Assembly (NCBI GenBank): GCA_031262525.1
Contig: JAISHM010000006.1
Coordinates: 7,880 to 71,879, forward strand
DNA length: 64,000 bases
DNA from: Rickettsiales bacterium
Lineage (GTDB): Bacteria; Pseudomonadota; Alphaproteobacteria; Rs-D84
Direction: 5' to 3'
The notes under the pieces were generated by a model. The model did not search any database. It was not told the DNA's origin and saw nothing but the letters and a program-made list of their open reading frames with translations. This document shows positions 7,942 to 54,100 of the stretch, in pieces (the first letter of the stretch is position 1; each line of letters opens with the position of its first letter). The position numbers and the translations under genes were made by a program.

Positions 7942-7945
7942 TTAC

Positions 7946-8458
7946 GCAAAATACAAAGATTTTTGCAATGCAACATTTATGACATTTGAATTGCCAGCAT
8001 ACAGCAAGCCGAATAAATTAAATAAAAGGTTCGTTAAACGTAAAAAGATTTATTTTACCGATACTAATTTCTTGTGCTATATCAAGCGTCGCGACATAGT
8101 GGATTTATATAATAATGACAAATCGGTTATGGGACATATATTTGAAAACTTTGTTGCAACGGAAATTATTAAAAATACAAGTGTTTTACCAGATAAATAT
8201 TATGTATCGCATTTTAATCCTGTACGTGGTGAGGGCAACGAGACCGACTTTATTATTGAAAAAGACAATGGCGAAACAATCGCAATCGAAGTTAAATTGG
8301 ATTCCACGTTAAACCCGAAAGATTTTAAAAATATGGAATTATGCCGTGATACAATTGGCGACAAATTCAAACGTGGTATAGTCCTTTATACTGGTGAAAA
8401 CATTGTCCCATTTGGTGATAAATTATGGGCAGTGCCTGTAAATTATTTGTATGAGTAA
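7946..8458 (+). pseudogene. C-terminal fragment of a DUF4143-type AAA ATPase
   Basis: ...KRFVKRKKIYFTDTNF...GHIFENFVATEIIK...ETDFIIEKDNGETIAIEVK matches the C-terminal DUF4143 region. The N-terminal AAA domain of roughly 200 aa is absent, and the fragment abuts the truncated AlpA-like gene. Confidence 0.55.
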
Positions 8459-8896: not shown

Positions 8897-8973
8897 CATC
8901 GCATATGCGGCGAATTTTTTTCCTTTGTTTATTTTTTAAATAAGACTATGATATGAAAAAGGGAGAAAAAAAA

Positions 8974-11769
8974 ATGAAAAAAATATTGCCCGTATCTTTG
9001 TTTGTATCTGTTTTTTCAATATCAGCATTCGCCGATATAATCACTTCAAATCAGTATATTAGTAATGGCGAAACAAAAAACTATACTGACCCAATTGCAG
9101 AAAATATGACCGATACTTATCCAGGGGTTGTATTTTATAACGAGGGAGAATTAAATATAACAAATGGGGAATTTAACACCAACTCTACAACTGGAAATAA
9201 TGGTTTTGGTGGTGTAATTATGAATTTAAATACGATTGGTTTGAAAAGCACTGTGTTCGATAAAAATACAGCAGAAAAAAGTGGCGGGGCAATTTATAAT
9301 GTCGGTTCTGCAAATATGGACGAAACACATTTTTCTGAAAATACAGGTGCATGGGGTGGCGCAATTTATAATGATGGCGGCGAGTTGGAGATTACAAATA
9401 GTTTATTCAGTAAAAATATAGGAACAACCGCAGGTGGCGCAATTTCCAGTTCAAATACAATAAATATAGAAAAAAGCACATTTTCTGAAAACGAAAGCGC
9501 ATGGGGTGGCGCGATTTATTCCACTGGCGATATAAATATAAAAGAAAGTTTGTTTGTGGATAATGATAGTGGTGCGAATTATGGTGGTGCAATATATATC
9601 CAGGGCGGTCAGACAGATATTTCAGATTCAAATTTTTCTGGTAATACCGCCAGTGGTGGCGGCGCAATCAGCGCAAGTACCGCGTCTGGTATAACTATTT
9701 CCATCACGGATAGTTTGTTTGAAAATAATTCTGTAACCGTTCAAGGTGGCGGTGCAATCAGTAATTATTCTTGGGGAGATGGTGTAATTGTTGATAATAC
9801 TATTTTCAGAAATAACCAAACAACAGGGACCACTCTGATAGATGGCACAGCTGCCGAAGGTGGTGGCGCAATGTTTTTTGGTTCTGATTCCGCAACATCG
9901 CTGACGAATAGTCAATTTATAAACAATACTTCTGTTATGAATGGTGGTGCGATTTCAATGCGAGCCAACAGGTTGGGGGACCAATCTTCTGCAAAACTTG
10001 ATATTAGTGATACAACTTTCAACACAAATGTTGCATCTGGAAACGGCGGCGCGATTTTTAATACTTTCTATGGCAGTGCCGCGGATGCTGATTTTGTAAA
10101 AATAAATAACTCTATTTTTTCAAACAATACTGCCGTAAATGGTGGCGCGGTTTATAATGATGGGACTGGTGACAAGATTGGTGGTATCGCGGCAATAAAG
10201 TTTGTTGGCGCAACATTTACAGATAATATCGCAACAACAAACGGCGGCGCGATTTATAACGCTGGTGGCGATATTTTGTTTTCTGGTGGCGCGACTTTTT
10301 CTGGGAACAAAGCAAATGGGGTGTTAAATGATATTTATAACACAGGTACTTTGACCTTTGATGGGGGAATTGTTGCGCTGGATGGTGGAATTGTTGGGGC
10401 TGGCGAAGTTGAATTTACAAACGGAACTTCGTTAAAAGCCAGTTTAACAGGTACAAATCCAATTATAACAACCAGTAAATTGTCAGGAACAATAAATCTG
10501 GTTGTAACCAATGTGAATGGCGGGCAAATTGTGTTTGATGCAGGTGAAGACACCCTGGTAATCAATAATAATAATTCTTTGTATGATATCACGGGTGTGT
10601 CAGGAACCTGGACAATCGCAAAGAGAAATACAGACGAGATATTATCAAATATCGGCGCATCAAATGAAGATGCAGAAATGGTTGCCGGGATAATGGCGGG
10701 GGATTCTAATAATGATAGTTTTAACTCTCTGCAAAATGAGATTACCGCACTGATGCAAAATGATTATACAAAAGCGACAGCAATTAAAATGTTGCGTGAA
10801 ATGGCGCCGACCAAGGCACCAACCATAGTAAGTAATTCGGTTCAGACGACCGGCGCTGTGATGAAATCTGTGGGGACGCGATTTAGTGGCGGTGGAATTA
10901 GCAGCGGAATGTCATCTGGTGATTATGTTTATGGTGATACAGCAGTATGGGCCCAGGGTTTGTATAACAAATCAAAATTGACGGGCGCAAATGGATACAA
11001 GTCAGATTCTTATGGTATATCGGCTGGGTTGGAAAGTGAATTGACCAGGGGGGTAAAATTGGGTTTGGGGTATGCATTTACTGAAACAACTATTGAACCA
11101 TTTGCGAATTCAACTGATATCAACTCAAACACTTTTGTATTATACGGGGAATATAAACCATTACATTTATACGGATTCCAAGATGCTGGAAATTGGTATG
11201 TGAATTCTATATTGTCCTATACAAACAGCGTATATGACAATGATAACAAGGTTGGATTAAATCATATTATGGCGAATTATGAAACGGATACATTGGCGGC
11301 GCAAATGATGACTGGTTATGATATTCATGCGTTTGATTTGAATTCCAATAAACTTTTTACAATGACGCCAGAGATTGGATTGCGTTATATGAATATCAAA
11401 CAATATGATTATACGAATAGTATCGGGAGTTTTTACAAAGGTAAAAAATACGATATCTTGACAGGGTTGGCAGGTGTGAAATTGGCAACAGACTTTTATC
11501 TGTCTGATAACTTTATGTTGCGACCAGAATTGCGAATTGGGCTTACATACGATATGTATAATGCGGATGGTTCGTCGGTTATGCGGCTTGCGAATGGTTC
11601 AACGATTGTTACAAATGGCGGTGCGCTGGATAGGTTAGCAACCGAGATTGGATTTGGCTTGACGGCAAGTTTGTCTGGAAATGTTGATTTCAGTTTAATT
11701 TACGAAGGGCAATTCCGTGATGGTTATTCTGATAATACCGGGATAGCAATGTTAAAAATATATTTCTAG
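8974..11769 (+). CDS. autotransporter outer membrane protein with Pmp-type (FxxN/GGAI) repeats
   Basis: Signal peptide MKKILPVSLFVSVFSISAFA. About 12 tandem F-x-x-N...GGA[IV] units (e.g. FSENTGAWGGAIYNDG). The C-terminal beta-barrel region of about 280 aa ends in aromatic ...AMLKIYF. GGGAG lies 8 nt upstream of the ATG at 8974; the alternative ATG at 8953 is less likely. Confidence 0.8.
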   Translation: MKKILPVSLFVSVFSISAFADIITSNQYISNGETKNYTDPIAENMTDTYPGVVFYNEGELNITNGEFNTNSTTGNNGFGGVIMNLNTIGLKSTVFDKNTAEKSGGAIYNVGSANMDETHFSENTGAWGGAIYNDGGELEITNSLFSKNIGTTAGGAISSSNTINIEKSTFSENESAWGGAIYSTGDINIKESLFVDNDSGANYGGAIYIQGGQTDISDSNFSGNTASGGGAISASTASGITISITDSLFENNSVTVQGGGAISNYSWGDGVIVDNTIFRNNQTTGTTLIDGTAAEGGGAMFFGSDSATSLTNSQFINNTSVMNGGAISMRANRLGDQSSAKLDISDTTFNTNVASGNGGAIFNTFYGSAADADFVKINNSIFSNNTAVNGGAVYNDGTGDKIGGIAAIKFVGATFTDNIATTNGGAIYNAGGDILFSGGATFSGNKANGVLNDIYNTGTLTFDGGIVALDGGIVGAGEVEFTNGTSLKASLTGTNPIITTSKLSGTINLVVTNVNGGQIVFDAGEDTLVINNNNSLYDITGVSGTWTIAKRNTDEILSNIGASNEDAEMVAGIMAGDSNNDSFNSLQNEITALMQNDYTKATAIKMLREMAPTKAPTIVSNSVQTTGAVMKSVGTRFSGGGISSGMSSGDYVYGDTAVWAQGLYNKSKLTGANGYKSDSYGISAGLESELTRGVKLGLGYAFTETTIEPFANSTDINSNTFVLYGEYKPLHLYGFQDAGNWYVNSILSYTNSVYDNDNKVGLNHIMANYETDTLAAQMMTGYDIHAFDLNSNKLFTMTPEIGLRYMNIKQYDYTNSIGSFYKGKKYDILTGLAGVKLATDFYLSDNFMLRPELRIGLTYDMYNADGSSVMRLANGSTIVTNGGALDRLATEIGFGLTASLSGNVDFSLIYEGQFRDGYSDNTGIAMLKIYF

Positions 11770-12665: not shown

Positions 12666-14228
12666 ATGAATTTATACCAGTATCTTAAAAATGCCGCAGA
12701 TTCCGCGCCGAATAAACTCTTTTTAATCAAAGAATCTGTTTCGTATTCTGAATTTATAAAACGGATTGCGCGTCGCGCCGCAATATTGGAATCCGATGGT
12801 GTAGTTGCTGGTGATGTTGTTGGAATTTTGGCGCGTAATATCCCAGAATTTTTGATTACAGCATGGGCCGCTTGGCAAGTTGGTGCGCGTGTTTTGTTAT
12901 TGGATAATAAATTGACCCATGATGATTATGAAAATATGACATCTCTGGTAAATTGTAAAATAGTCTATGCCGAAGAGAGGTTTATTTTCCAAACAAAAAA
13001 GATTAAATTTTGTGATATTTGCGCCCCAGACAAAGATATAAAAAAAACACCGAAAATTGTTGATGTTTCGGGTGATGAAATTGCAACTCTTCAATTTACA
13101 TCGGGTTCAACCGGCGTGCCAAAAATTGTCCCATTGACCCATAATAATTTAATTGCGGCGGCAGACGGACTGGAAGACCTGCGTGGCTATATTGACGATG
13201 GCGATGACTTTTTATTATTCTTGCCATTGTTTCATATTTTTGGATTGGCATTTATTACGTTAAATGCAATTCATTATCGTGGTGGTGTTGTTTTGGAAAC
13301 ATCGGGCAACCCGCGCGAGATTGTTAAAAACTTCCGTATTTACAAACCGCGTGTTGTTCCGGCAGTGCCACGAATTTGGGAAATTATTCGTAATATGATA
13401 ATTTCTGAATATAAAAATCATGGAACTTGGTCGGCGGCAAATTGGATTTTGCGACATCAAAAATTATTGCGATTTTTTCATCTAAACCAGCTTGTGCGTC
13501 AAATGCAATGGCCGGTTCATGAAATGTTTGGGCGCCGGCGCGCGACCTTGATTGGTGGGGGGGCCGCGGTAAAACCAGAAATTATTGAATTTTTTGAGTG
13601 GTTCGGTTTTGATTTCTTACAAGGGTATGGTTTGACCGAGGGAAGCGGCCCAAATTGTGTATCTTTACCGCGCCCTGGACGATATGTGGGCAGTGTGGGT
13701 ATGCCATTGCGTCCAAATGACTTTAGAATACAAAATCAAGATAAGTCGGGTGTTGGTGAATTATGGCTGCGCGGGCCAATGATTTTTTCTGGGTATTTGG
13801 ATAATGTTGCTGCGACCAATGAAATTTTTAATAATGGCTGGATGAATACTGGCGACCTGGCACGCACGGATAAAAACGGCGAAATTCATATTTGTGGGCG
13901 CGCGAAAAATGTTATTGTTTTGGGGTCTGGGAAAAATGTTTTTCCAGATGAGTTAGAGGCTGCATACATAACAATTGACGGCGTAAAAAATGTTATGGTT
14001 ATTGAATTTGATGGGCGTGTATTCGGTATTTTCCAGGTTGATGACTATATAACTTTGGAAAAATTGGGCGCAAAAATAGAAGTTGTAAATAAAAAAATTG
14101 CGCCATATAAACAGGTGGTGCATTTTGCAATAACTACCGAAAATTTACCCGCAACCAGCAGTGGAAAAAACAGACACTTTATCGCCAAAGAATTGTTAAA
14201 AGCGGGCGCATACCCAAACCGAAAATAA
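12666..14228 (+). CDS. AMP-dependent synthetase/ligase (acyl-CoA synthetase-like), paralog A
   Basis: ANL motifs TSGSTGVPK, GYGLTE, TGDLAR and SGKN. 520 aa. Collinear with ORF 23600-25180, with the same N-terminus (MN.Y.YL) and C-terminus (AG.YPNRK). Confidence 0.8.
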   Translation: MNLYQYLKNAADSAPNKLFLIKESVSYSEFIKRIARRAAILESDGVVAGDVVGILARNIPEFLITAWAAWQVGARVLLLDNKLTHDDYENMTSLVNCKIVYAEERFIFQTKKIKFCDICAPDKDIKKTPKIVDVSGDEIATLQFTSGSTGVPKIVPLTHNNLIAAADGLEDLRGYIDDGDDFLLFLPLFHIFGLAFITLNAIHYRGGVVLETSGNPREIVKNFRIYKPRVVPAVPRIWEIIRNMIISEYKNHGTWSAANWILRHQKLLRFFHLNQLVRQMQWPVHEMFGRRRATLIGGGAAVKPEIIEFFEWFGFDFLQGYGLTEGSGPNCVSLPRPGRYVGSVGMPLRPNDFRIQNQDKSGVGELWLRGPMIFSGYLDNVAATNEIFNNGWMNTGDLARTDKNGEIHICGRAKNVIVLGSGKNVFPDELEAAYITIDGVKNVMVIEFDGRVFGIFQVDDYITLEKLGAKIEVVNKKIAPYKQVVHFAITTENLPATSSGKNRHFIAKELLKAGAYPNRK

Positions 14229-23599: not shown

Positions 23600-25180
23600 T
23601 TACTCTTTACGATTTGGGTAATCGCCTGCTTGCAATTTTTCACGCACCACATGGTGTTTGATTTTTTGTGTTCCAGACAATGGTAATTCATCTGTTGTCA
23701 TCGCAAAGTGCGTAACCCATTTATAACTGGCTACTTTTTTATTTGCATGCATAATTGACTTCATCAGTTTATCCATCGTTGTGCCGTTTTCTACTTGAAA
23801 TACGCCGTATGATACGGTTTTATTTTTTACACGATGTTCAAACACTGCGACATTTTTTACGAATGGGATTTTCATAAACAAGGCCTCTAATTCATCTGGA
23901 TAAACATTTTTTCCAGAATCCAAAACAATCACTTGTTTTTGCCGTCCATGAAAATGCAATTCGCCGTTTTTATCCATTGATACCAGGTCGCCTGTGTTAA
24001 AAAATCCGCGTTCATCAAAGGCATTTTGATTAGCCTCGTCATTGGCTAAATATCCGCCAAAAACCTGATGCCCGCGCAACCATAAAACACCGATACCTTC
24101 TTCGTTTTTGCATCTGATTTCAACCTCGTTATTAGTAATCGGTCCGCCAAACGCAAATGGTTTTCTGTGTTTTACTGGTTTGGAAATACAGATTGGTCCA
24201 ACCGTTTCTGTCAGTCCGTATCCCTGGATAAAGGTCAATCCCAGACGTTCGTAAAATGTTTCAACCTCTGGCTTTACCGCAGCGCCACCTGCGACCAACA
24301 GGCGCGCACGACCACCAAATACTTTCAATACTGGTTCTTGAATTTTGCGCAATAAAAATCCTAATCCCAGTTTTTGGAAAATATGTCCGTATTTCAGAAC
24401 AAACGATGCCAACCACCATATTTTCTTTTCTTTCAGAGTAGTTATAATTTTATTGCGGAATACTTCCCATAAACGTGGGACCGCTGGAATAATTTGCGGG
24501 CGGTATTTTGCAAAGTCCGACAAAATATCCTTTGGATTGACAGTCGGTTGTAATAAAACATTTGCGCGATAGTGTATAGTCGCCAGAATTTCTACCGCAA
24601 ACCCAAACACATGATACATTGGTAAAAATCCATATAGCGTATCACCACGATTGAGCCACGCACTCATATCATCCAGGGATTCTGCACATTCCACCAAATT
24701 ATAGTGTGTCAGTGGAACAATTTTTGGCACGCCGGTCGTTCCCGATGTAAAGGATAATGTCGCGATATCTTCGGATGATACAGACGCAACCTTTGGATAA
24801 GTTTTTGGTTTTTCATCTGTTTCGGTAATATCATAAAACTTAAACTTTGCTGATTTATAGAAAAAACTTTTTTCCGCCAAAACCAATTTTGTTTTGGTCA
24901 GTTTTGTCATATTATCATATTCAAACGGGGTTAAATTTGTATCCAGCAATAACACCTGGGCCCCCAGATACCATATTGCAAATAATGATAATGGAAATGA
25001 CGGAATGTTATGTGCCAGAACACCAACAACACTACCCTGTTTTACCCCCAACGATTCCAATGTTGCGGCGCGATTTTTCACCATTGTGAAAAAGTTTGCG
25101 TATGTTATATTTTCACGCGTCAGGAACAATTCGTTCGGGGCGTCTGCCACCGCCTGTTCCAGATATTTATACATATTCAT
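23600..25180 (-). CDS. AMP-dependent synthetase/ligase (acyl-CoA synthetase-like), paralog B
   Basis: 526 aa with TSGTTGVPK, GYGLTE, TGDLVS and SGKN. Collinear with 12666-14228, roughly half of residues identical by eye. Confidence 0.8.
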   Translation of the reverse strand: MNMYKYLEQAVADAPNELFLTRENITYANFFTMVKNRAATLESLGVKQGSVVGVLAHNIPSFPLSLFAIWYLGAQVLLLDTNLTPFEYDNMTKLTKTKLVLAEKSFFYKSAKFKFYDITETDEKPKTYPKVASVSSEDIATLSFTSGTTGVPKIVPLTHYNLVECAESLDDMSAWLNRGDTLYGFLPMYHVFGFAVEILATIHYRANVLLQPTVNPKDILSDFAKYRPQIIPAVPRLWEVFRNKIITTLKEKKIWWLASFVLKYGHIFQKLGLGFLLRKIQEPVLKVFGGRARLLVAGGAAVKPEVETFYERLGLTFIQGYGLTETVGPICISKPVKHRKPFAFGGPITNNEVEIRCKNEEGIGVLWLRGHQVFGGYLANDEANQNAFDERGFFNTGDLVSMDKNGELHFHGRQKQVIVLDSGKNVYPDELEALFMKIPFVKNVAVFEHRVKNKTVSYGVFQVENGTTMDKLMKSIMHANKKVASYKWVTHFAMTTDELPLSGTQKIKHHVVREKLQAGDYPNRKE

Positions 25181-31462: not shown

Positions 31463-32449
31463 TTATAATTCTGTTGGTAATGACATTCCTCTGGCTTCTA
31501 TGTATATGCGTTCCGAGCCTGTACCCTTTCTGATTTCTAGATAGGTATTGGTCATATTTCCGTTATTTACTGCTATATATGTTGATACCTCACCGGATGC
31601 TGTTCCTGTTGTTTCCCGTGTTATATTTACATGATAATTAGCATCTGCGAATGGCATTGGAAATGTCCAACCAAGTTTTGTATGTGTTGTGCTATTAAAC
31701 CTTATACCTTGTTCAACCCATCCAGATTTATATCTGCGATACCAAACATAACCACTGGTGGTATTAGATGCAGATGTTTTAACAACATAATCTATGTATT
31801 CATTGGATAATGTTGGTGATTTTGATACAATCAGGTTTGTATCAACAGGTTCGTGTAATTCATCTTTGGTGGCATAGTTTGTTAAATCTGGTATATCGGC
31901 GGAAAGAGTTTCACCATTCATGGTAAGTCCGGTGCCTATTTTAACACATCCCTTTACAGATGCACTGGCGGTAGGGATATTAAATTCGGCAATTGCGGTT
32001 GCGGCTGCCAAAATATCCTGGGGCATACCCAGTTTTTCCCAATCTGAAAAATTATTTAATTTATTACGAAATTCTTTGACCAATTCCACCAAATAATTAA
32101 AATCGGTATTCAGATGATTTGGTTGAATCATACCTGCTTGTGGATAACAAATTGGACGAGTTAAAGATAATTCGCGGTATATTTTGATTATCGTCCCTGA
32201 CGCTGGGGCATTGTTAAAAACAATCCTTCCCCCCCAATTTGATATAATCCCAATATCATTTGCAGCGCGTTGTTCTTCTGATTCGTATTCTGGCTCGGTT
32301 GTTGATTTTTGGACAGAATAATTGTCCAAGGTCTGTAAAATTCCATCAATGGAAATTTTTATATCTGATTCTTGGAACCATTGAAAATTAAAATTGTATT
32401 CGTGTGTCTGCCCGTCCCCTGAAAAGGTTATTTGATTTGTGTTTTCCAT
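31463..32449 (-). CDS. phage tail fibre-like protein (orphan)
   Basis: 328 aa. The N-terminus ITFSGDGQTHEYNFNFQWFQESDIKISIDG fits the tail-fibre N-domain pattern. ASVKGCVKIGTGLTMNGETLS is a fibre repeat. The C-terminus GYVWYRRYKSGWVEQG...FPMPFADANYHVNIT is like gp53-type tail-fibre tips. Confidence 0.6.
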   Translation of the reverse strand: MENTNQITFSGDGQTHEYNFNFQWFQESDIKISIDGILQTLDNYSVQKSTTEPEYESEEQRAANDIGIISNWGGRIVFNNAPASGTIIKIYRELSLTRPICYPQAGMIQPNHLNTDFNYLVELVKEFRNKLNNFSDWEKLGMPQDILAAATAIAEFNIPTASASVKGCVKIGTGLTMNGETLSADIPDLTNYATKDELHEPVDTNLIVSKSPTLSNEYIDYVVKTSASNTTSGYVWYRRYKSGWVEQGIRFNSTTHTKLGWTFPMPFADANYHVNITRETTGTASGEVSTYIAVNNGNMTNTYLEIRKGTGSERIYIEARGMSLPTEL

Positions 32450-38473: not shown

Positions 38474-39991
38474 ATGATTTCATTAAACTCTTTGATATTT
38501 AACGGGCTGGACGCGATACCAATCCAGATTCAGGTCCAGATGACATCAGGTATGTCGGAACAGAATTTTTTTCTGATTGGGTTGCCGGACCGCGCGGTTC
38601 GTGAATCACAAATGCGGGTGCGAAATGCGCTGTCGTCGTTAAACATTGCATTACCAAATAAGAAATTGACAATCAACCTGGCGCCCAGTGATATTGAAAA
38701 ATCTGGTGCGCATTTTGATATGCCGATTTTGTGTGGCATTTTATGCGCGTTGGGGATTCTGCCCGAAGAAGAATTATCAAAATATGTTATTATGGGAGAG
38801 GTCGGATTGGACGGCGCAGTTCTGAAAACGAATGGAATTTTACCGGCCAGCGTTTGGGCAAATCAAAATGGAATGGGAATAATTTGTCCAGCGGCAAACG
38901 GGGCCGAAGCGCGCTGGGCTGGATTTGATAAAATACTGGCTCCGTCTCATATTTTGGATTTAATAAATCATTTTCGTGGGACCCAGGTTTTACCTGTGCC
39001 GAATACCACATCGCCAAAACAAAATAATTCGTCGGCGGGTGATATGTCCGAAATTTATGGGCAGGATAGTGCAAAGCGTGCGCTGGAAATTGCGGCGGCG
39101 GGCGGGCACGCAATGCTGATGATGGGACCGCCCGGGTCGGGGAAAACTATGTTGGCTTCGCGCCTTTCCGGGATTTTACCAGAAATGACGCCGGCGGAAA
39201 TTTTGGAATCTTCGATGATTTATTCTGTGGCGGGACAACTTGACGCACAAAGTTTGGTATCAACGCGCCCGTTTCGCGCTGTGCATCATACGGCATCTGC
39301 GGTTGCGTTGGCCGGGGGTGGAACGGACGCAAAGCCAGGTGAAATTTCGTTGTCACATTTAGGGATTTTGTTTTTGGACGAGTTGCCAGAATTTCAAAGG
39401 GCAACCTTGGAAATTTTGCGCCAGCCGATGGAAAGCGGAAAAATTATGATTTCTCGTGCAAAGCGGGTGGCGACTTATCCAGCAAAATTTCAACTGATTG
39501 CCGCGATGAATCCGTGTCCGTGTGGTCATTTGGGAAATCCAAAAATGGCGTGTTCGCGCGCACCACGTTGTGCCGAAGCGTATCAAAATAAAATCAGTGG
39601 CCCCCTGTTAGACCGCATAGATTTACATGTTGATGTAGATAGCGTAAATCCCTGGGATATGAAGGCGGATGATGGCGCACATCGCGAATCCAGCGCGGAT
39701 ATTCGTGCGCGAGTGGTCGCAGCGCGAAAACGGCAATTAGGGCGCCAGGGAAAAATAAACGCTCACTTAGACGGGGCGGAATTGGACAGGGTTGTAAATT
39801 TAACATCTGAACTGACGGACTTTCTGAATAATGCAGCGGAACAAATGGGAATGTCGGCGCGTGGATATCAAAGGATAAAACGCATTGCGCGGACAATTGC
39901 AGACTTGCGCGGTGGGGACGATGTGATAATGGATGACTTGGTAGAGGCGATTTCATATCGCCCGATTAAACGCGGAAAATATGGGGTATAA
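38474..39991 (+). CDS. YifB/ComM-family Mg-chelatase-like AAA ATPase
   Basis: 505 aa with an N-terminal Lon-protease-like domain, GPPGSGKTMLA Walker A, and LFLDELPEF Walker B. Confidence 0.85.
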   Translation: MISLNSLIFNGLDAIPIQIQVQMTSGMSEQNFFLIGLPDRAVRESQMRVRNALSSLNIALPNKKLTINLAPSDIEKSGAHFDMPILCGILCALGILPEEELSKYVIMGEVGLDGAVLKTNGILPASVWANQNGMGIICPAANGAEARWAGFDKILAPSHILDLINHFRGTQVLPVPNTTSPKQNNSSAGDMSEIYGQDSAKRALEIAAAGGHAMLMMGPPGSGKTMLASRLSGILPEMTPAEILESSMIYSVAGQLDAQSLVSTRPFRAVHHTASAVALAGGGTDAKPGEISLSHLGILFLDELPEFQRATLEILRQPMESGKIMISRAKRVATYPAKFQLIAAMNPCPCGHLGNPKMACSRAPRCAEAYQNKISGPLLDRIDLHVDVDSVNPWDMKADDGAHRESSADIRARVVAARKRQLGRQGKINAHLDGAELDRVVNLTSELTDFLNNAAEQMGMSARGYQRIKRIARTIADLRGGDDVIMDDLVEAISYRPIKRGKYGV

Positions 39992-45869: not shown

Positions 45870-47691
45870 ATTTCTTTGCTTTTTTACGCATTGTTGAATC
45901 CAATTCCCTTTTTCGCAATCTGATTGTGTTTGGTGTAACCTCTACCAATTCATCATCTTGGATATAGGATAATGCTTCTTCCAGACTAATCCGACGCGGT
46001 GGCGCCAAGAATAATTTTTCATCCGCCGTCACAGAACGCATATTGGTCAATTCCTTGCCCTTTATTGGATTTACTTCCAGGTCATTTTCTTTGCTGTGTT
46101 CGCCGATAATCATACCAGAATAAACCAATGTTTGTGGTTCAATAAATAATGTGCCGCGTGGTTGCAAGTTAAACAGCGCGTATGTCGCCGCACCACCATT
46201 TTCCATAGAAACCAAAACACCCGGGCGATAGGTTTCAATATCACCACGATAAAAATCATATTTATCAAAGATACGATTCATTATACCTGTGCCGCGTGTG
46301 TCTGTGCGAAACTCTGATAAATATCCAATCAGTCCCCGACTTGGCGCCGAAAATACAATTCGCGATTTACCAACGCCCGATGGTTTCATCTCAATAATCA
46401 TACCCTTGCGCTTGGTCATTTTTTCAATAACAACGCCGCTGTATTCATCATCAACATCAATCACAACATCTTCGATTGGTTCCAGTTTGTTTCCATTTTC
46501 ATCTTCGTGGAACACAACGCGCGGACGCGAAACTGATAATTCAAAACCCTCGCGGCGCATGGTTTCAATCAAAATCCCCAGTTGTAATTCGCCACGACCA
46601 GAAACCTCGAACGCTTCGTTATTCGCGCTTTGCACCACGCGCAGCGCAATGTTTGTTTCTGCTTCCTTGAATAATCTTTCGCCAATCATTCGACTGGTCA
46701 ATTTTTTCCCACCGCTCTTTCCCGCCAGTGGCGAAGTATTTACAAAAAATGTCATTGTCAGGGTCGGCGGGTCAATCGGCAATGCAGGAATTGGTGCAGA
46801 AACAGATGGGTCACACAGGGTATCAGCCACTGTTGCCTTGCTGAATCCAGCAACAACAACAATATCGCCGGCAGACGCGCTGTCCAGTGAAATTTTTTCA
46901 ACACCGCGATGTTCAATAATTTTTGTGATTTTTGCGTTTTCAACAAAATCACCATTCATATTTATTGCTTTTACACTTTGCCCAACACGGACACTGCCAC
47001 TTTCAATTCGTCCAGTCAGTATTCGTCCAACATATGGGTCCGCTTCTAGCGTTGTCGCCAACATCTTAAAAGGTCCATCCGTATCCAGTCGTCCCGGTAC
47101 GCAATCAGGCGCCGGCACATGGTCAATAATCAGTTGAAACAAAGGTGTTAAATCCTTGGGTTCATCTGTCAATTCACGCGTCGCCCAACCATCGCGACCC
47201 ACCGCATAGACATACGGGAAATCCAATTGCGCATCTGTCGCGCCCAATTTATCAAACAGGTCAAATGTTTCGGATAATACTTCGTCAGGACGGGCATCAT
47301 GCCTGTCCACCTTGTTTATACAAACAATAGGACGCAGTCCCAGTTTTAACGCCTTACCCAATACAAATTTTGTTTGGGGCAGGGGACCCTCGGAACTATC
47401 TACCAATAATACAACACCATCAACCATGGATAAAATTCGTTCCACTTCTCCGCCAAAGTCCGCGTGCCCAGGGGTATCCACAATGTTGATTTTATAATCA
47501 CGCCACACGACCGATGTCGGTTTTGCAGAAATTGTGATTCCGCGTTCGCGTTCCAAATCCCCGCTGTCCATAACGCGGTCGGCGACCTTTTCATTTTCAC
47601 GAAACGAGCCCGCTTGTTTTAACATATTATCAACCAAGGTTGTTTTGCCGTGGTCAACGTGCGCGATAATCGCAATGTTTCTGATTTTCAT
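45868..47691 (-). CDS. typA: translational GTPase TypA/BipA
   Basis: 607 aa. IRNIAIIAHVDHGKTTLVD, DTPGHADFGGEVER and NKVDR GTPase motifs with BipA-type C-terminal domains. Confidence 0.95.
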   Translation of the reverse strand: MKIRNIAIIAHVDHGKTTLVDNMLKQAGSFRENEKVADRVMDSGDLERERGITISAKPTSVVWRDYKINIVDTPGHADFGGEVERILSMVDGVVLLVDSSEGPLPQTKFVLGKALKLGLRPIVCINKVDRHDARPDEVLSETFDLFDKLGATDAQLDFPYVYAVGRDGWATRELTDEPKDLTPLFQLIIDHVPAPDCVPGRLDTDGPFKMLATTLEADPYVGRILTGRIESGSVRVGQSVKAINMNGDFVENAKITKIIEHRGVEKISLDSASAGDIVVVAGFSKATVADTLCDPSVSAPIPALPIDPPTLTMTFFVNTSPLAGKSGGKKLTSRMIGERLFKEAETNIALRVVQSANNEAFEVSGRGELQLGILIETMRREGFELSVSRPRVVFHEDENGNKLEPIEDVVIDVDDEYSGVVIEKMTKRKGMIIEMKPSGVGKSRIVFSAPSRGLIGYLSEFRTDTRGTGIMNRIFDKYDFYRGDIETYRPGVLVSMENGGAATYALFNLQPRGTLFIEPQTLVYSGMIIGEHSKENDLEVNPIKGKELTNMRSVTADEKLFLAPPRRISLEEALSYIQDDELVEVTPNTIRLRKRELDSTMRKKAKK

Positions 47692-47707
47692 ATATTTACT
47701 CTTTTAA

Positions 47708-48001
47708 TTATAACCCTGTTATAAAGTCTGGAAAGCCCACGTCTTCTTCGTCCAGTTTATCATCCACAGGCTCTGGCGCAGGTATTTTTTCCCCAGGCGC
47801 ACGTGTAGTGTCAATTTTTGATTGCTCTTCATTTACAATACGGCCATAGTGTTCCGCCATTTGTAAAATTCTTTCCCGTTCAATCGGGTCGGAAACACCA
47901 CGCGCCGCGTCCATATATTGTTTTCTTTTTTGACGCCAGCGATGACAGCGTTGTATCATTGACCCAACAGGCGATTGTTTTTTATTATTATTGTTTTGCA
48001 T
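47708..48001 (-). CDS. DUF4167-like small basic protein
   Basis: 97 aa. ...YMDAARGVSDPIERERILQMAEHYGRIV resembles the alphaproteobacterial DUF4167 Q.AEHY.R core. Confidence 0.4.
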   Translation of the reverse strand: MQNNNNKKQSPVGSMIQRCHRWRQKRKQYMDAARGVSDPIERERILQMAEHYGRIVNEEQSKIDTTRAPGEKIPAPEPVDDKLDEEDVGFPDFITGL

Positions 48002-48092
48002 AATTTTTTCTTTGTTATTAAAGTGGAAATTATCCAGGGAAATTTATTAAATGTCCCAAGGTTCCCTATATTTTACACCGATAGAAATTCAA

Positions 48093-48121
48093 TTGCAATA
48101 ATTTTTTTTAATCGCTATTAT
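48093..48121 (+). promoter_or_regulatory. candidate sigma70-type promoter of the pilin-like operon
   Basis: TTGCAA - 17 bp - TATTAT, 25 bp upstream of the TTG start at 48146. AGGAGG lies at 48133-48138. Confidence 0.35.
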
Positions 48122-48145
48122 TGCGGATAAGTAGGAGGTTTTTTA

Positions 48146-49585
48146 TTGCGTAAATCGCTCTCTGGAAATTTTTTATTACAGGCGTTATTGGCAATCGCCT
48201 TGATTATGGCGTTTATGCCGTTCCTGGCGTCGCGTATGGCGGTGCAAAAAAATGACGCCGCCGCCGCCGCAATCGCGCGACAGGTAAATATTGCGGCACG
48301 CGCTGCGCGTGGGTATTTAACGGAAAACGAAAAAAATATAAATTATGGAATAACAAAAACAGATGGTGATGATTTTGTTGATTTACTGGAACCATTTGGA
48401 TTGCCGTTGGGTTTTATCCCGACAACAATAGACGAACAAAAAATATCGCTGGTTGCGATTAAATCACAAAATGATATGACAATGCTGGTTGCGCTGGACG
48501 CAGGGAATTTATCAGAATCTGCGCGCGCCGCACTGATGACTCGGATTGGACCGGACGCAGCCGAATTATCCAATGATGGTGTATTGAGTGGTATTGGTGG
48601 TTGGGAAAAAAAGTTAGGCAAGGTTGCGTCATCACTGGATACAGATGCAATTTATGTTTATGTGCAAACCGGGAATGATTATTCGGAACTGGTGCGCCGC
48701 AATTCGTCAGATATAAAACGCAACAGATTTCATACTGATTTATATATGGGTGATAATATGATACGCAATATGACATCGTTATCGGCGAAAAATGCCGATA
48801 TTGGTATTGCAAATTTTGGAACATTGAATATATCGGGAACATCGGACAAGAGAAATATAAAAAATAAAATAGAATCATTAAATGCTGGACGTGCGGTATT
48901 CCAGACGCGTGATGGCGCAAATGCGTTGAATATTACGGGCGGAAATTTAATTGCGGATTCTATAACGACTGGCTCGTTGTTTATGTATGGTGGAATTGGT
49001 GATGTTTCTGCGGGCGATGTGTCGTTAAATTCCCTGACTATGTCGGTGGGCAAGACCGGATTTAACAGCACGGGTGATTGGCGTATAAATGGAAATATGA
49101 CACTATCAAATATATCACTTGATACACAATTGTTGGAAATAAAGGGTTTTATAAACGCCGCACGTGGTCAGGATGTTTTTATAGATACAGATGAATTGAC
49201 ATATTCAACAACCAGTGGGATTATTGCAAATTCTGTATCAACATCATTTATTACATTACGCGACCAAATTTCGTCTTCGTTATTATCTGGTGGAACAGGC
49301 GCGGTTATTTTGGATATTCGCCCAGCGGGTGTTTCATTATTACCAGACATATTATTATCAACAATAAATAATGATGATTTTAGTATTTTACGGCGACCAT
49401 TGGAATCAAACGCTGATACAGACGGGTGTTCCGCGATTATTCGCGCACTGAATAAATCACCAAAATATAATGAAAAATCAGTGTCGCAAAATGTTGTTTG
49501 TCAGATGGTGTATTTGCATCGTTTAGAACAAAGATTAAATGCAGCAGAATGTATTGCAAAGGGGCGTTCGGATTGCGGGGTATAA
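48146..49585 (+). CDS. large prepilin-like protein P1 (pseudopilin/minor-pilin-like N-terminus, beta-solenoid-like C-terminal region)
   Basis: The TTG start is preceded by AGGAGG. The N-terminus MRKSLSG|NFLLQALLAIALIMAFMPF aligns without gaps with P2 and P3 (Gly at -1, Q/E at +5, PF at +18/19). 479 aa. Confidence 0.6.
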   Translation: MRKSLSGNFLLQALLAIALIMAFMPFLASRMAVQKNDAAAAAIARQVNIAARAARGYLTENEKNINYGITKTDGDDFVDLLEPFGLPLGFIPTTIDEQKISLVAIKSQNDMTMLVALDAGNLSESARAALMTRIGPDAAELSNDGVLSGIGGWEKKLGKVASSLDTDAIYVYVQTGNDYSELVRRNSSDIKRNRFHTDLYMGDNMIRNMTSLSAKNADIGIANFGTLNISGTSDKRNIKNKIESLNAGRAVFQTRDGANALNITGGNLIADSITTGSLFMYGGIGDVSAGDVSLNSLTMSVGKTGFNSTGDWRINGNMTLSNISLDTQLLEIKGFINAARGQDVFIDTDELTYSTTSGIIANSVSTSFITLRDQISSSLLSGGTGAVILDIRPAGVSLLPDILLSTINNDDFSILRRPLESNADTDGCSAIIRALNKSPKYNEKSVSQNVVCQMVYLHRLEQRLNAAECIAKGRSDCGV

Positions 49586-49599
49586 ATAAAATTTTTAAT

Positions 49600-50817
49600 T
49601 TGCGACAACAGCGCGGAGCAGGCCTGATGGAAACATTATTGGCGCTGGCGATTGTTGGTGCGATTGCGCCATTTGTGTATGACACAATGTCTGGGGTAAC
49701 CATTGACATTGCCAACGCTGCCGAGGCCACGCAAGTCAAAGCCTGGGGCGGACCAGTTATGGCCTATGTTCGTAAAAATAATGCGGATTGGCCTGCGAAT
49801 GCAGGATTGGAATTTGATGCCGAAGAAATAGTAAAAATAGGTACGGGTAAAAATAAATTGACATCGCCATACGCAGGGTTTATTGAAAAACGCACGGAAA
49901 GTAGCGGCGTTATTATAAATGCTTATCTGGTGTTTCGTCCAAAAGATATTTCCGCTATGCGTGTTCATAAAATCGCAAAATTATTGGGGCGCAACGCTGC
50001 GGTTGCAGACGATAATGGCACAGCGCAAAGCCCATCTGGTTGGCGCGTTTCGTCGGATGTTTTCGCAGTTGGTGATTTGGTCTTTCGTATTTCGGATATT
50101 TTGGGGATGGATGATTCTGAAAAATATCTGCATCGGACATTTCTTGATAGTTTGGATATGAATACGATGCGTCGCGACCTGGATATGGGAAAACATAGTA
50201 TTGTTGATGGCGGCACAATAAATACCCAGGTGTTAAACGCAACAAATGGAAATTTATGGCTGGTTGAAACGCCAGTTATGAAGGTTGGAGAAATTTATTT
50301 TCCATTCGGCGCGACATTGAATGGGTCGCGGGCGCGTTTTAATTCACTCAGTATAAATGGGGATATGAATTCATTCCGTAAAATCACCGCGGGAAAGTTC
50401 AAGGGCACTGGCGCAATCGCAAATACCCAATGGTCATCGCGTGGGAATGTTGTTGCAGATTATGTAAATATATTGGGGGATGTAAATGTAAATAATGGCG
50501 TTCGTGTCGCGTCGTCAACGGCACGAACAATTTCTGGATTTGCATCTGTGGCGACTGGTTCGGTCGCGACGTCTTATTTATCTGCATCTGATGTGTTGTT
50601 TGCGTCTGGCGCGGGTATAACAATATCCAGCGAATTGTTATATTCTAATGCTGATGCGCCATTACAATTGGGTAAGTGGGTATTCCCATCAGAAAACGGA
50701 CCAGAATTTAACAGATTTATTTTGGGCAATTCAGGCGATATAACAAATATATTATCTGTGCCCAATAACAAAGAATTTGATTTAATAATGGGCAGTAATT
50801 GGAAAGACATACGATGA
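49600..50817 (+). CDS. large prepilin-like protein P2
   Basis: MRQQRG|AGLMETLLALAIVGAIAPF is a short basic leader, Gly at -1, Glu at +5 and a hydrophobic helix of about 20 aa. The start is inferred as TTG 49600, 15 nt after the P1 stop; the ORF track begins at 49498 inside P1. The stop overlaps the P3 ATG (ATGA). Confidence 0.6.
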   Translation: MRQQRGAGLMETLLALAIVGAIAPFVYDTMSGVTIDIANAAEATQVKAWGGPVMAYVRKNNADWPANAGLEFDAEEIVKIGTGKNKLTSPYAGFIEKRTESSGVIINAYLVFRPKDISAMRVHKIAKLLGRNAAVADDNGTAQSPSGWRVSSDVFAVGDLVFRISDILGMDDSEKYLHRTFLDSLDMNTMRRDLDMGKHSIVDGGTINTQVLNATNGNLWLVETPVMKVGEIYFPFGATLNGSRARFNSLSINGDMNSFRKITAGKFKGTGAIANTQWSSRGNVVADYVNILGDVNVNNGVRVASSTARTISGFASVATGSVATSYLSASDVLFASGAGITISSELLYSNADAPLQLGKWVFPSENGPEFNRFILGNSGDITNILSVPNNKEFDLIMGSNWKDIR

Positions 50818-52133
50818 AAATAAAACGCAGATTTTTTTCAAGGACACAGCGCGGTGGTATGATGATAGAAATTTTATTGTCGCTCGCGATTACGGCCGCC
50901 GCACTGCCTTTTGTTTTACGTGATGTTGCCAACCGCGCAAGACGTGCAGAAAATGTTATGGTTGCGCGTGAAATAGCCGATGTTCGTGATGCACTGGAAA
51001 GATATATGGATACGAATAAATATGAGTTGTTAAAACCTATATCGCGAACAATTACACGGGTTAAAATGGCGGATTTGGCGACTTATGGTAATTTACCAAC
51101 CGATATGGATAAATATGCCGCGCGTGTTATAAAGTCTCGTGATGTAAATGGTCGCGGTGTTTTATCCGGTGTTGTAATTTATAATTCTGAAAATGAATCT
51201 GTTATGCGGACACGCGAAATTGCTGCTTTTGGTGGTGGTTCTGCCGGATTTATCGAAGATGGTCGTGCAATTGGTGTGTATGGTGATTGGACCAGTAATA
51301 CCAGTATTTTTGATGCAAATATAGAAAAAGACGCCATTGTTCAAAATACCGGGACAATAATTTCATCGGGGGATTTTTTATGGAGAATTCCGTCTGATAA
51401 TGCGACAGACGGAACTATGTCGTCGGATTTGTCTTTGGGTGGATATGGAATTTTAGATGCACGGGATATTACAACATATACATCTGACTGGACCGAAATT
51501 TTCAAGGCCGACGCTATAAATGCGCGGACCGCACGAATTACCCCGCGCGCTGATATAGATTTTGGTGTAATCGTATCGGGGGATGCGGGGGTTATGGGGG
51601 CTTTGACATCTGATTCGCGTAATGCAGAATTGACGGGTGGTTTGTTTATAAATGGTGATGCGCGCCTGTCCAGGTTAGAGGCGAGTCAATTATGGGTGCG
51701 GGATTTGTCTTTATCTGCATTATCGTCCAGCAACGAAGACGGAACCGCCGCAATGAACATAGGTGGTGTTATGGATATTACACGCGGACATATTTATTCC
51801 CAGGTCGCGACAATTGGTTCCCAGGGCAGTATAGCGCCTAAAATAGCGATTGAAACAAAAATATCAGATAACACCAATCCAAATTATTATTGGGATTTAG
51901 AACTGGGTGATGCGGCAATGAGTGATATTATATTGGGGCAATTGACACCGATGATACAAAACGCGATAAAGAAAGAGTCTGGGAATTCACGGACTTTGTC
52001 GGCGTTTTCACAAATATCAGCAAATAATAACGCGACACTTTTGGATTATGTGCGTGCAACCGAAGACATAAAAAAGCAATTACAACAAAAATATATACAA
52101 ATTCAAGAAATAATAAAAAATACACAAAACTAG
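50814..52133 (+). CDS. large prepilin-like protein P3
   Basis: MKIKRRFFSRTQRG|GMMIEILLSLAITAAALPF has Gly at -1 and Glu at +5. 439 aa. It shares the internal motif L-x-R-x13-D-L-x-[ML]-G-x3-I with P1 and P2. Confidence 0.6.
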   Translation: MKIKRRFFSRTQRGGMMIEILLSLAITAAALPFVLRDVANRARRAENVMVAREIADVRDALERYMDTNKYELLKPISRTITRVKMADLATYGNLPTDMDKYAARVIKSRDVNGRGVLSGVVIYNSENESVMRTREIAAFGGGSAGFIEDGRAIGVYGDWTSNTSIFDANIEKDAIVQNTGTIISSGDFLWRIPSDNATDGTMSSDLSLGGYGILDARDITTYTSDWTEIFKADAINARTARITPRADIDFGVIVSGDAGVMGALTSDSRNAELTGGLFINGDARLSRLEASQLWVRDLSLSALSSSNEDGTAAMNIGGVMDITRGHIYSQVATIGSQGSIAPKIAIETKISDNTNPNYYWDLELGDAAMSDIILGQLTPMIQNAIKKESGNSRTLSAFSQISANNNATLLDYVRATEDIKKQLQQKYIQIQEIIKNTQN

Positions 52134-52171
52134 GTTTGTGTTTTGGGTAAAAGTTTTTTATAATAGGTTTT

Positions 52172-52648
52172 ATGAAAATAACTTGTCCTTTTTGTGGTGT
52201 ATCTTATTCTGTGCGTGCTGATGCTGGTCGGTTTCAATGCGCTGTATGTTCGCATGTGTGGCGCGCAGATTTACGCGCCCAAAAATCACGACGGGTAAAG
52301 TTATTATTATCTGGATTTATTTTATTGGTTGCAGTGTTTATTCTGGTTGCTACAATTTTATGGTTTCCAAATAATCATCATGATGAATTGACAGCAAATG
52401 TAAATTCTGTATCGCAAATGGAAACTTCATTAAATGTTTCGGGTGTAATTAAAAACATATCTGATAATTTATATGGTATTCCAGATATGTTTGTTATTAT
52501 AACAGATAAATCTGGTGTGGTGATAAATTCGTATCGGTTTTCGCCACCTGCGCCGCTGCTGGATTCTGGGGAAAGTATAAATTTTTCTGTTGATGTTCCA
52601 GGAAGTTATACTGGTGCGATAAAAGTTATGGTAAAGTTTAAGGAGTAG
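52172..52648 (+). CDS. zinc-ribbon (MJ0042-type CxxC...CxxC) membrane protein with DUF3426-like C-terminus
   Basis: MKITCPFCGVSYSV....FQCAVCSHVW, then one TM (LLLSGFILLVAVFILVATILW), then a beta-sandwich-like tail (VSGVIKNIS...INFSVDV). Confidence 0.55.
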   Translation: MKITCPFCGVSYSVRADAGRFQCAVCSHVWRADLRAQKSRRVKLLLSGFILLVAVFILVATILWFPNNHHDELTANVNSVSQMETSLNVSGVIKNISDNLYGIPDMFVIITDKSGVVINSYRFSPPAPLLDSGESINFSVDVPGSYTGAIKVMVKFKE

Positions 52649-52652
52649 GGCA

Positions 52653-53141
52653 ATGAAAAAAATACTTTGTTTTGTTGTTGGAATTTTTTGTATTACAGGT
52701 TCGGCAATTGCAGACTTGACCGCGAACCCATCTGTTAAACCATCGTATGTCAGTGTCTTTTCCACCAGTTCCGATTGGGAGGCCGTAACAGGTCTGCGTT
52801 TTTCAGAATATACTTTGGAATTTGTGCGTTCTCGGGCGATAAATGGGCGCGGCACAGAAATTTATTTTCTGGATGAATTTCCATGTGTTGGTCAGGCATC
52901 TGATGTTCGCCAATGGATTTCTGCGAAAAGAACTAAAACATCGGCGGCCGATATGCGGATTACATGTTTGGTTGCCCCGGAATCTGTAAAATTTGCTTGG
53001 CGGGACGCGGGAATGGACGATGCCCAGGGGCGCACGACAGGGATGATGGAATGTGAAACACGGGGTCGTGGGAATACATTGGTTATTGACCTGGCGGATT
53101 GTGATACGGATATAACATGGGATAAATTGAAAAAACAATGA
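52653..53141 (+). CDS. secreted hypothetical protein
   Basis: Signal peptide MKKILCFVVGIFCITGSAIA. 162 aa with several Cys. It starts 4 nt after the previous gene and has an ATGA overlap with rluD. Confidence 0.4.
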   Translation: MKKILCFVVGIFCITGSAIADLTANPSVKPSYVSVFSTSSDWEAVTGLRFSEYTLEFVRSRAINGRGTEIYFLDEFPCVGQASDVRQWISAKRTKTSAADMRITCLVAPESVKFAWRDAGMDDAQGRTTGMMECETRGRGNTLVIDLADCDTDITWDKLKKQ

Positions 53142-54100
53142 ATGATGAAATAAAAAAATTTGTGGTTGGCGATTTGGATAATGGGCAAAGGCTGGATAAA
53201 TTTTTATCCGCCCAAATGCCAGAATTTTCGCGCAATGAAATCCAAAAATTTGGAATTGTAAAAATCCCAGATAAAAAAATAAAATTATCAGATAGGGTAA
53301 AGGTCGGTGATATTTTTGCGGTGTCATTGCCGATAAAAACAGAATCAAACAAAATAATCGCAGCGAAAAAAAATGAATTCCCGCTGGATATTTTATACGA
53401 AGACAATGATATTATTGTTGTGAATAAACCACGTGGGGTTGCCATGTATCCAGGCGCAGGACGCGAAGACGATACAATGGTTGCACGCGTTTTAGCACAC
53501 ACAAATTTATCAAACTTATCTGGTGATATGCGACCTGGTGTTGTGCATCGTTTGGATAAAGATACCAGTGGAATCGTTATTTTTGCAAAGTCTGACGCGG
53601 CGATGCGCACGCTGACCGCGACCTTTGCGGCGCATGATTTAATAAGAAAATATATTGCATTTGTTTGGGGAATTCCAAATTGGGAAACTGCGGATATTTT
53701 TGGAAATATCGGACGCAGCACAAAAAACAGACAAAAAATGACAATGTTAAAGGTCGGTGGAAAGCCTGCCCAAACACAGGTGCGCGTTGTGAATGCGTGG
53801 GCGCACTTTGGTATATCAAAACTGGAATGCACATTATTGACGGGGCGGACACATCAAATTCGTGTTCATTTGTCGTCGCACGGATTTCCTGTTGTTTGCG
53901 ACCCTGTGTATGGTCGTGGCACTTCGCGTCTGGGCAGTGTCAAAGATTTAGATTTGTTGGATTTTATAAAAACACATCATGGGCAAATGTTGCATGCAGC
54001 GGTTTTAGAATTACATCACCCAATTACAAATGAATTGTTAAAGTTTCGGTCAAAATTGCCGACTGATATGAAGGAACTGCAAGAAATTTTATCTAATTGA
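53138..54100 (+). CDS. rluD: RluA-family 23S rRNA pseudouridine synthase (RluD-like)
   Basis: N-terminal S4 domain, catalytic HRLDKDTSG, and TGRTHQIRVH. Confidence 0.85.
   Translation: MNDEIKKFVVGDLDNGQRLDKFLSAQMPEFSRNEIQKFGIVKIPDKKIKLSDRVKVGDIFAVSLPIKTESNKIIAAKKNEFPLDILYEDNDIIVVNKPRGVAMYPGAGREDDTMVARVLAHTNLSNLSGDMRPGVVHRLDKDTSGIVIFAKSDAAMRTLTATFAAHDLIRKYIAFVWGIPNWETADIFGNIGRSTKNRQKMTMLKVGGKPAQTQVRVVNAWAHFGISKLECTLLTGRTHQIRVHLSSHGFPVVCDPVYGRGTSRLGSVKDLDLLDFIKTHHGQMLHAAVLELHHPITNELLKFRSKLPTDMKELQEILSN

Follow-up and report, generated by a model that had tools for sequence, protein, structure and literature searches.

Three tandem genes at positions 48146–52133 of the window, by which we mean the complete stretch of 64,000 nucleotides analyzed here (contig JAISHM010000006.1 of a Rickettsiales bacterium), encode proteins that we call P1, P2 and P3. 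An earlier note on this DNA had read them as unusually large prepilin-like proteins, possibly belonging to an adhesin-heavy surface fibre. As judged from profile comparisons of their sequences, P1–P3 are members of the PilV family (Shufflon_N superfamily) and not a new protein class. We lean towards the reading, which we hold slightly more probable than all others together, that the three proteins form a heterotrimeric PilV-like complex for the tip or the priming of a pilus, in which P1 is outermost and by which the bacteria would contact surfaces or partner cells.

In conjugative type IVb pili, PilV acts as a minor pilin and as the adhesin by which recipient cells are selected (PMC9045228, PMC5297154, PMC5430464). 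Like the PilV proteins of IncI1 R64, IncI2 TP114 and PAPI-1/pKLC102 (PF04917), the proteins studied here combine a prepilin leader ending in Gly, a Glu at position +5 (replaced by Gln in the first paralog, P1) and a length of 400–480 residues with an N-terminal pilin-like domain, ending in a YL-x-R...N-x-M...(L/I)D(M/L)GG-x-x-I motif, and a beta-rich region thereafter. Since PilV proteins themselves have about 400–480 residues, P1–P3 are not oversized for their family, and their description as giant or unusual in size was overstated. There are also differences to PilV, as the genes for P1–P3 are chromosomal in reduced Alphaproteobacteria instead of being part of a pil operon on a plasmid or an integrative and conjugative element (ICE), and as they encode three fixed paralogs instead of one protein with invertible C-terminal segments. 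The trio furthermore lacks Rci, sfx repeats and, compared with the Pseudomonas plasmid operon, an adjacent pilL–pilU machinery, and its products are uniformly conserved and fall below the Pfam threshold. No sfx-like inverted repeats were found within positions 47600–53300, nor any recombinase gene in the neighbourhood, and with no repeats the idea of the trio as a shufflon was rejected.

With direct Pfam scans being sub-threshold, the link to PilV requires profile–profile or transitive searches. Using tblastn against 72,556 plasmids, P2 gave ten matches, nine of which are annotated PilV tip-adhesin genes, while the tenth carries the annotation of a hypothetical protein and has equal scores over the query segment that the others match; all of these matches span residues 115–215 at a weak E-value (0.6). 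An exhaustive search of 1.84 billion cluster representatives, using a hidden Markov model (HMM) of the P3 family, yielded 574 proteins at E≤1e-3. Pfam Shufflon_N, having a gathering threshold of 27.5 bits, was matched by 5 out of 51 distant relatives found with this HMM; P0094 (E 3e-28 to the P3 profile), with the NCBI name 'shufflon system ... pilus tip adhesin PilV', reached 31.7 bits on Shufflon_N and P0146 (E 1e-13) reached 89.8 bits. In hhalign comparisons, the P3 profile matched a single Pseudomonas plasmid PilV (80 %, E 1.4e-5, 223 columns), and when a two-sequence PilV alignment was used the scores were 97.8 % (E 1e-12) for P1, 97.5 % (E 8e-12) for P2 and 98.3 % (E 1.7e-14, 298 columns) for the P3 family, with the matches of P1–P3 covering 206–298 columns from the leader through the internal motif. 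That motif, L-x-R-x13-D-L-x-[ML]-G-x3-I, was found in P1, P2 and P3 as previously described, and aligns to YLYR...NRMNTSIDMGGNNL of the PilV constant region. The kinship with PilV/shufflon minor pilins, which the earlier note had put forward, was hence correct according to four independent lines, namely plasmid tblastn, transitive HMM searching and the two hhalign comparisons. The N_methyl and Shufflon_N profiles that it had named stayed below threshold when used directly, whereas family profiles reached both PilV and the N-termini of pilins (E 1.8e-4).

The three N-termini had been aligned without gaps, with Gln or Glu at +5 and Pro-Phe at +18/19, and interpreted as class III (prepilin-type) signals. 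We made N-terminal logos from orthologs of 41–44 species-level genomes and found these positions to be invariant or nearly so. With ↓ denoting the predicted cleavage site, the consensus was ...[RS]G↓NFLLQALLA...PF for P1, ...RG↓[AST][GS]xxE[VT]LLAMAIV...PF.Y for P2 and ...[RH]G↓[GSN]M[LM]xE[LIF]LL...PF for P3. Gly at position -1 was invariant in all three families, together with Glu+5 in P2 and P3 and Gln+5 in P1; among 41 genomes the whole G↓NFLLQ of P1 was invariant and the leader, Gly-1 and Glu+5 of P2 were conserved. In an alignment of 51 far more distant relatives, Glu+5 was the sole fully invariant column (51/51), with Gly-1 and Pro each at >90 %. The features of a class III signal (a basic leader ending in Gly, Glu+5 and about 20 hydrophobic residues) were thereby all found, with Gln+5 in P1, and the invariance of Gly-1 and Glu+5 across both the order and the superfamily of 574 representatives supports that assignment. 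P2 and P3 orthologs (loci L001–L050; window positions 49549–49617 and 50814–50855) have type IVb-like leaders of 13 residues or more with a shared [KR]-I-F-x5-7-[RH]-G motif, while those of P1 have just 3–8 residues.

That P1, P2 and P3 are ancient paralogs, related far beyond chance, was indicated by pairwise BLASTP (E 2e-8 to 4e-5) and by hhalign of family profiles built from 40–42 orthologs per protein (98.6–99.1 %, E 1e-15 to 1e-18, 243–359 columns), with control comparisons against the families of the neighbouring P4 and P5 proteins giving 0.3–2.9 %.

With regards to fold, the P3 superfamily profile matched N-termini of solved type IV pilins, namely Geopilin domain 1 (9egp_A, E 1.8e-4; 7tgg_A, E 5e-3), a fimbrial protein (8tob) and GspG (5wda), with leader, Gly and Glu in register. 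A first AlphaFold model of P3, made with 20 sequences, was poor, with a predicted local distance difference test (pLDDT) score of 54.6; the model made with a 67-sequence alignment had a mean pLDDT of 79.4. The latter shows a helix at residues 12–67 followed by a beta-sheet of 5–6 strands with two short helices, with residues 20–180 at pLDDT 87–98, and its secondary structure fits the long alpha-1 helix and antiparallel beta-sheet expected of a pilin. It continues with a beta-rich region at residues 216–370 (pLDDT about 60–70) and C-terminal helices at residues 377–438 (pLDDT 80–92). A bactofilin domain was considered and rejected, having given faint Foldseek matches only and no Pfam match, as was an AsmA/TamB-like lipid-transfer protein, for which no support was seen.

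The trio consists of three co-directional open reading frames (ORFs) on the plus strand, as claimed before, with the TTG start of P1 behind an AGGAGG sequence (479 residues) and the overlap of the P2 stop with the ATG of P3 (439 residues) also borne out. Its features in the window are as follows.

48133–48138, plus strand: Shine–Dalgarno sequence AGGAGG of P1, read from the sequence, 7 nt ahead of the TTG start
48146–49585, plus strand: P1, PilV-like pilin-like protein of 479 amino acids, ORF with TTG start at 48146
48164–48166: Gly codon ending the P1 leader MRKSLSG, followed by NFLLQALLA...PF with Gln at +5
about 48689–48763, plus strand: PilV constant-region motif of P1
49549/49600–50817, plus strand: P2, PilV-like pilin-like protein, ORF with ambiguous start
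49615–49617: Gly-1 codon of P2, giving the mature N-terminus AGLMETLLALAIVGAIAPF
about 50128–50202, plus strand: P2 motif YLHR...DLDMGKHSI
50814–52133, plus strand: P3, PilV-like pilin-like protein of 439 amino acids, ORF with ATG start
50853–50855: Gly codon ending the P3 leader MKIKRRFFSRTQRG, giving the mature sequence GMMIEILLSLAI...PF
about 51378–51452, plus strand: P3 motif FLWR...DLSLGGYGI; the middle region of P3 is beta-rich and its C-terminal region helical

The stop codon of P2 (TGA, 50815–50817) shares bases with the start of P3 (ATG, 50814) in the form ATGA. For P2 itself there are three possible starts, being ATG at 49549 (422 residues), TTG at 49600 (405 residues, 14 nt past the P1 stop) and ATG at 49627 (396 residues). 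Gene callers picked the last of these, with which the leader would be lost. Since the leader of P2 orthologs (...[KR]-I-F-x5-7-R-G) is found in frame before the hydrophobic helix, the real start should lie upstream of 49615, so that ATG 49627 is very probably wrong and either ATG 49549 or TTG 49600 is probably the true start. The earlier placement of the start 15 nt after the P1 stop holds to the extent that TTG 49600 begins at the 15th base and gives 405 residues, with the choice of start being ambiguous. Public gene calls of P2 frequently begin too far downstream, cutting off the leader.

The trio is flanked by three further genes that accompany it.

47708–48001, minus strand: P0, conserved small protein of 97 amino acids, weakly DUF4167-like, divergent from P1
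52172–52648, plus strand: P4, 158 amino acids, with an N-terminal CxxC...CxxC zinc ribbon, one transmembrane helix and a DUF3426-like C-terminal domain
52653–53141, plus strand: P5, 162 amino acids, with a Sec-type signal peptide and four invariant Cys

The start of P4 lies 38 nt past P3 and that of P5 lies 4 nt past P4, with the P5 stop overlapping the start of rluD. P0 matched DUF4167 weakly and below threshold (Pfam E 5e-4). Within the block it shows the highest conservation (56–78 % identity across the order); it is invariably divergent from P1, and adjoins P1 in 40 of 45 loci, which is wherever the locus reaches far enough upstream; whether it is functionally tied to the trio is uncertain. 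P4 matched Zn_ribbon_4 (E 1.7e-5) and, in two orthologs, DUF3426 (E 1e-3 to 1.5e-2), all below the Pfam thresholds, with the four zinc-ribbon Cys being 98–100 % conserved. P5 had no Pfam match, and its Cys78, Cys105, Cys134 and Cys150 are 100 % conserved. In the C-terminal part of P1, Cys428, Cys452, Cys469 and Cys477 are kept in 97–100 % of the orthologs, and the presence of invariant Cys pairs in both P1 and P5 indicates that these proteins are located outside the cytoplasm.

The host organisms belong to the order Rs-D84 (Candidatus Enterousia and relatives), in agreement with the prior assignment to a reduced alphaproteobacterium. These bacteria occur widely in the guts of animals, humans and termites, with genomes below 1 Mb that lack most biosynthetic pathways, including those for nucleotides and amino acids; dependence on partner cells has been proposed, and no flagella have been reported in the Rs-D84 lineages (PMC12306168). 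In a collection of 5.8 billion proteins, P3 had 26 close relatives, those with names all deriving from uncultured Alphaproteobacteria or metagenome-assembled genomes (MAGs) labelled 'Rickettsiales'. Scanning of GTDB species representatives gave 43 loci, including many of Candidatus Enterousia, termite-gut MAGs and one closed genome of 958,618 bp. The gene order P0, P1, P2, P3, P4, P5, rluD was found in every Rs-D84 locus that was long enough, with lineage-dependent outer flanks (typA/recA or dnaX); in the window the chromosomal trio is flanked by typA/recA and rluD. The five-gene block of about 5 kb was kept in 43/43 species-level genomes retrieved and the trio was complete wherever the contig allowed, such that the conservation about which the earlier note had asked extends to every relative examined. 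As the ORFs of the trio are intact in these 43 genomes, in a fixed order and at 33–55 % identity, they appear to have been under long-term purifying selection, and their retention in all relatives points to a conserved device for attachment to surfaces.

The architecture of the trio predates Rs-D84 according to these sequence comparisons, since triplets of this kind are also seen in further uncultured lineages from the gut. Locus L054 has a triplet of 531, 455 and 653 residues together with P4- and P5-like genes, L055 one of 444, 461 and 487 residues, and L056 one of 469, 446 and 482 residues, while L052 has a partial gene followed by genes for 427 and 518 residues and then recO. Gln+5 is found in the first member also outside Rs-D84 (G↓AVLLQ in L055 and G↓SILFQ in L056). 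A separate subgroup of proteins with about 1,000 residues and a PilV-like N-terminal domain, making up about 40 among the top 150 HMM matches, belongs to flagellated gut Alphaproteobacteria; at L057 (10001–13117) such a protein of 1,038 residues (G↓SMMVEALAMLGL...) is encoded inside a fliL/fliM/fliP cluster of a gut alphaproteobacterium.

A motif scan of Enterousia loci also revealed a highly conserved, classical pilin-like gene of 152 residues, with dnaX on one side and an OmpA-family gene on the other, at about 5 kb upstream of P1–P3 (L004 4939–5397 (-) and L054 4513–4968 (-); also in L047 and L038). Its product has the N-terminus M..esG↓RSLIEviGVLAIAG... and two conserved C-terminal Cys. 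A search gave 464 homologs, of which the 120 listed are at least 59 % identical except for one fragment of 105 residues, and some of the homologs carry the label 'type II secretion system (GspH family) protein' from the Prokaryotic Genome Annotation Pipeline (PGAP).

According to the reading that we favour, the N-terminal helices would insert P1–P3 into the inner membrane, a prepilin peptidase would cut them after the invariant Gly, and the alpha-1 helices would join the three proteins into a heterotrimer that acts as a cap or priming complex. Within it, P1 with its Gln+5 may take the outermost position of the tip, in analogy to GspK, a protein that likewise lacks Glu5. The complex would top a type IV filament of a small major pilin, for which the Enterousia 152-residue protein is a candidate, and in the gut the bacteria could use it to contact surfaces or partner cells, with the assembly machinery presumably encoded elsewhere in the genome and with P4 and P5 as possible lineage-specific accessory factors. 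That P1–P3 are still processed and assembled like pilins can be argued from the strictness of Gly-1, Glu+5 and the basic leaders, together with the existence of the separate small pilin.

Several known systems offer partial parallels. CofB and LngB of enterotoxigenic Escherichia coli (ETEC) and TcpB of Vibrio cholerae are minor pilins of about 420–520 residues, with a pilin domain and beta-rich C-terminal domains, which form trimers at the pilus tip and initiate assembly. These are however homotrimers of one product encoded within a pilus operon, in contrast to P1–P3, where three paralogs without operon-linked machinery suggest a heterotrimer, and profile searches and Foldseek gave no sequence or fold match between them and P1–P3. 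In the type II secretion system (T2SS), GspK, GspI and GspJ similarly are three different pilin-like proteins encoded in tandem, with E. coli GspK lacking Glu+5, to be compared with Gln+5 of P1, but these minor pseudopilins have 125–327 residues and are encoded inside the gsp operon. Similarity to Gsp proteins was weak and lay mostly within the N-terminal signal/alpha-1 region according to hhalign, where the scores were at most 72.6 % (P2 with GspI, 32 columns); the best matches of P2 with GspI and GspH covered 29–32 N-terminal columns and longer ones, of up to about 108 columns, scored at most 36 %. The NCBIfam gspI model gave 13.2 bits (E 0.09) on P3, to be compared with a cut-off of 44.35. 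TadE, TadF and TadG of the Tad/Flp system follow the same G↓xxxxE logic at the processing site, and TadG is also large. P1–P3 had no Pfam or NCBIfam match to TadE or Tad families at E≤10, and their sequence after the Glu (E-[LIT]-LL-[AS]-[LM]-A-I) resembles that of type IV pilus and T2SS pilins, unlike the E-F-A-L-V-L-P type of TadE.

A number of results weigh against the favoured reading. First, the machinery for assembly was not seen. We used Pseudomonas plasmid PilN, PilO2, PilP, PilQ, PilR, PilS and PilT, as well as E. coli GspD, E, F, G, H, I, J, K, L, M and O, as phmmer queries against all ORFs of the window and of more than 50 loci. By ORF reading and phmmer, the window has neither a pilus/T2SS ATPase nor a platform protein, a secretin or an A24 prepilin peptidase, in line with what had been noted before. 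None was found either in the 6.6 kb past its 3' end, by which the covered part of this genome comes to about 70 kb, or in related loci amounting to about 0.93 Mb. The 10 kb surrounding the trio in the 43 genomes and in five loci of distant relatives (L052 and L054–L057) had no such genes, nor were any seen near distant family members in seven contexts. Second, the 152-residue pilin was not found in the window or at the loci of the closest relatives of the window, and a survey of Rs-D84 genomes gives type IV pili for another lineage only, with none mentioned for Rs-D84 (PMC12306168). Third, the conservation of P1–P3 among orthologs is uniform, at 0.4–0.6 per 30-residue block, with no variable receptor-binding C-terminal end as in PilV, leaving the description 'adhesin-heavy' unsupported. 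Fourth, Pfam N_methyl, having a cut-off of 21.2, gave 12.2 bits (E 0.14) for P2 and no match for P1 and P3, and Shufflon_N had no match for any of the three even at E≤10. Finally, Foldseek found nothing significant with two AlphaFold models against the PDB or with the better one against BFVD, likely because of the extended multi-domain model with its long helix, and the fold assignment hence rests on secondary structure and sequence profiles.

A machinery-independent complex is the strongest of the alternatives, to which we assign a limited probability, clearly below that of a pilus tip. P1–P3 would then be of PilV-like descent and no longer cleaved or polymerized, with their helices kept as permanent signal anchors, and they would make up, perhaps with P4 and P5 included, a fixed complex that lies in the periplasm or spans the envelope and has a housekeeping role in the envelope of these reduced cells. 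This would agree with the lack of assembly genes near the trio in any sampled lineage, with its location among housekeeping genes (rluD, typA, recA, dnaX and recO), with a uniform conservation that is not adhesin-like, and with the survey not reporting type IV pili in Rs-D84 (PMC12306168). However, the invariance of Gly-1, Glu+5 and the basic leader across the order and the 574-member superfamily is hard to explain without peptidase cleavage and helix–helix assembly, and Enterousia has kept a small pilin gene of the classical type apart from the trio.

We find it improbable that the trio and the small pilin instead constitute a competence or uptake pseudopilus, Com-like or T2SS-like, that is not adhesive and imports DNA or nutrients. 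Such a structure would feed nucleotides to cells unable to make them, which would suit the missing nucleotide and amino-acid biosynthesis of Rs-D84 (PMC12306168), and a ComM-like gene was read by eye in the window (38474–39991). The N-termini of P2 and P3 are also weakly like GspI, GspH and GspG. That likeness is however confined to the first 30–110 residues or so, to be compared with the 206–298 columns matched with PilV, and no ComEC, ComEA, GspD, GspE or GspF was seen in the window and related loci. A decaying remnant of an integrated conjugative element, left over from the type IVb mating pilus of a plasmid or ICE, would agree with the nearest relatives that have a name, which are PilV proteins of plasmids or ICEs. 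It is highly improbable, however, and largely refuted by the intact, ordered conservation of the trio; the lack of other pil, tra, rci or integrase genes nearby and of shufflon repeats, and a guanine–cytosine content matching that of the flanks, also speak against it.

Some further features of the window and its flank were observed. A 938-residue autotransporter with Chlam_PMP-like repeats (8953–11769, plus strand) is a further candidate surface adhesin. An ORF of 328 residues (31463–32449, minus strand), located alone between an AsmA-like gene and fabI, has weak Pfam matches to the N-terminal part of a phage T7 tail fibre (E 2e-4) and a gp53-like tail-fibre C-terminal part (E 9e-4), and a small cluster of phage-like ORFs at 6433–8458, including a 165-residue helix-turn-helix/terminase-small-like protein, was judged by eye as a possible prophage remnant. 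Two paralogous AMP-dependent ligase-like genes, encoding 520 and 526 residues with very similar N-termini, are found at 12666–14228 (plus strand) and 23600–25180 (minus strand). About 3–6 kb past the 3' end of the window, an ftsQ-like gene has downstream of it an ORF of 920 residues for which Pfam records no family (L059, 504–3266, minus strand).

While the PilV protein family was already known, the chromosomal architecture of three paralogs with a Gln+5 member is new, as are the loss of shufflon and operon-linked machinery, the Rs-D84-specific partners P4 and P5, and the size of the alphaproteobacterial superfamily. Tentatively, and regarding it as rather unlikely, we propose that the trio with its Gln+5 member, accompanied in Rs-D84 by P4 and P5, is the core of an undescribed attachment or uptake organelle of obligately partner-dependent gut Alphaproteobacteria. 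In such an organelle the PilV-like heterotrimer may cap a minimal pilus, the machinery of which is too divergent or too scattered to be annotated, or the complex may operate without any type IV assembly machine. Being built from relatives of a cell-recognizing pilus tip adhesin, the block is a concrete candidate for the device by which Rs-D84 bacteria contact their partners. The PilV/Shufflon_N family now reaches beyond mobile elements into a large chromosomal alphaproteobacterial superfamily, with 574 cluster representatives and variants of 400–1,600 residues, and its recurrent design of three paralogs, with one subunit lacking Glu+5, makes heterotrimeric type IVb tip complexes directly testable.

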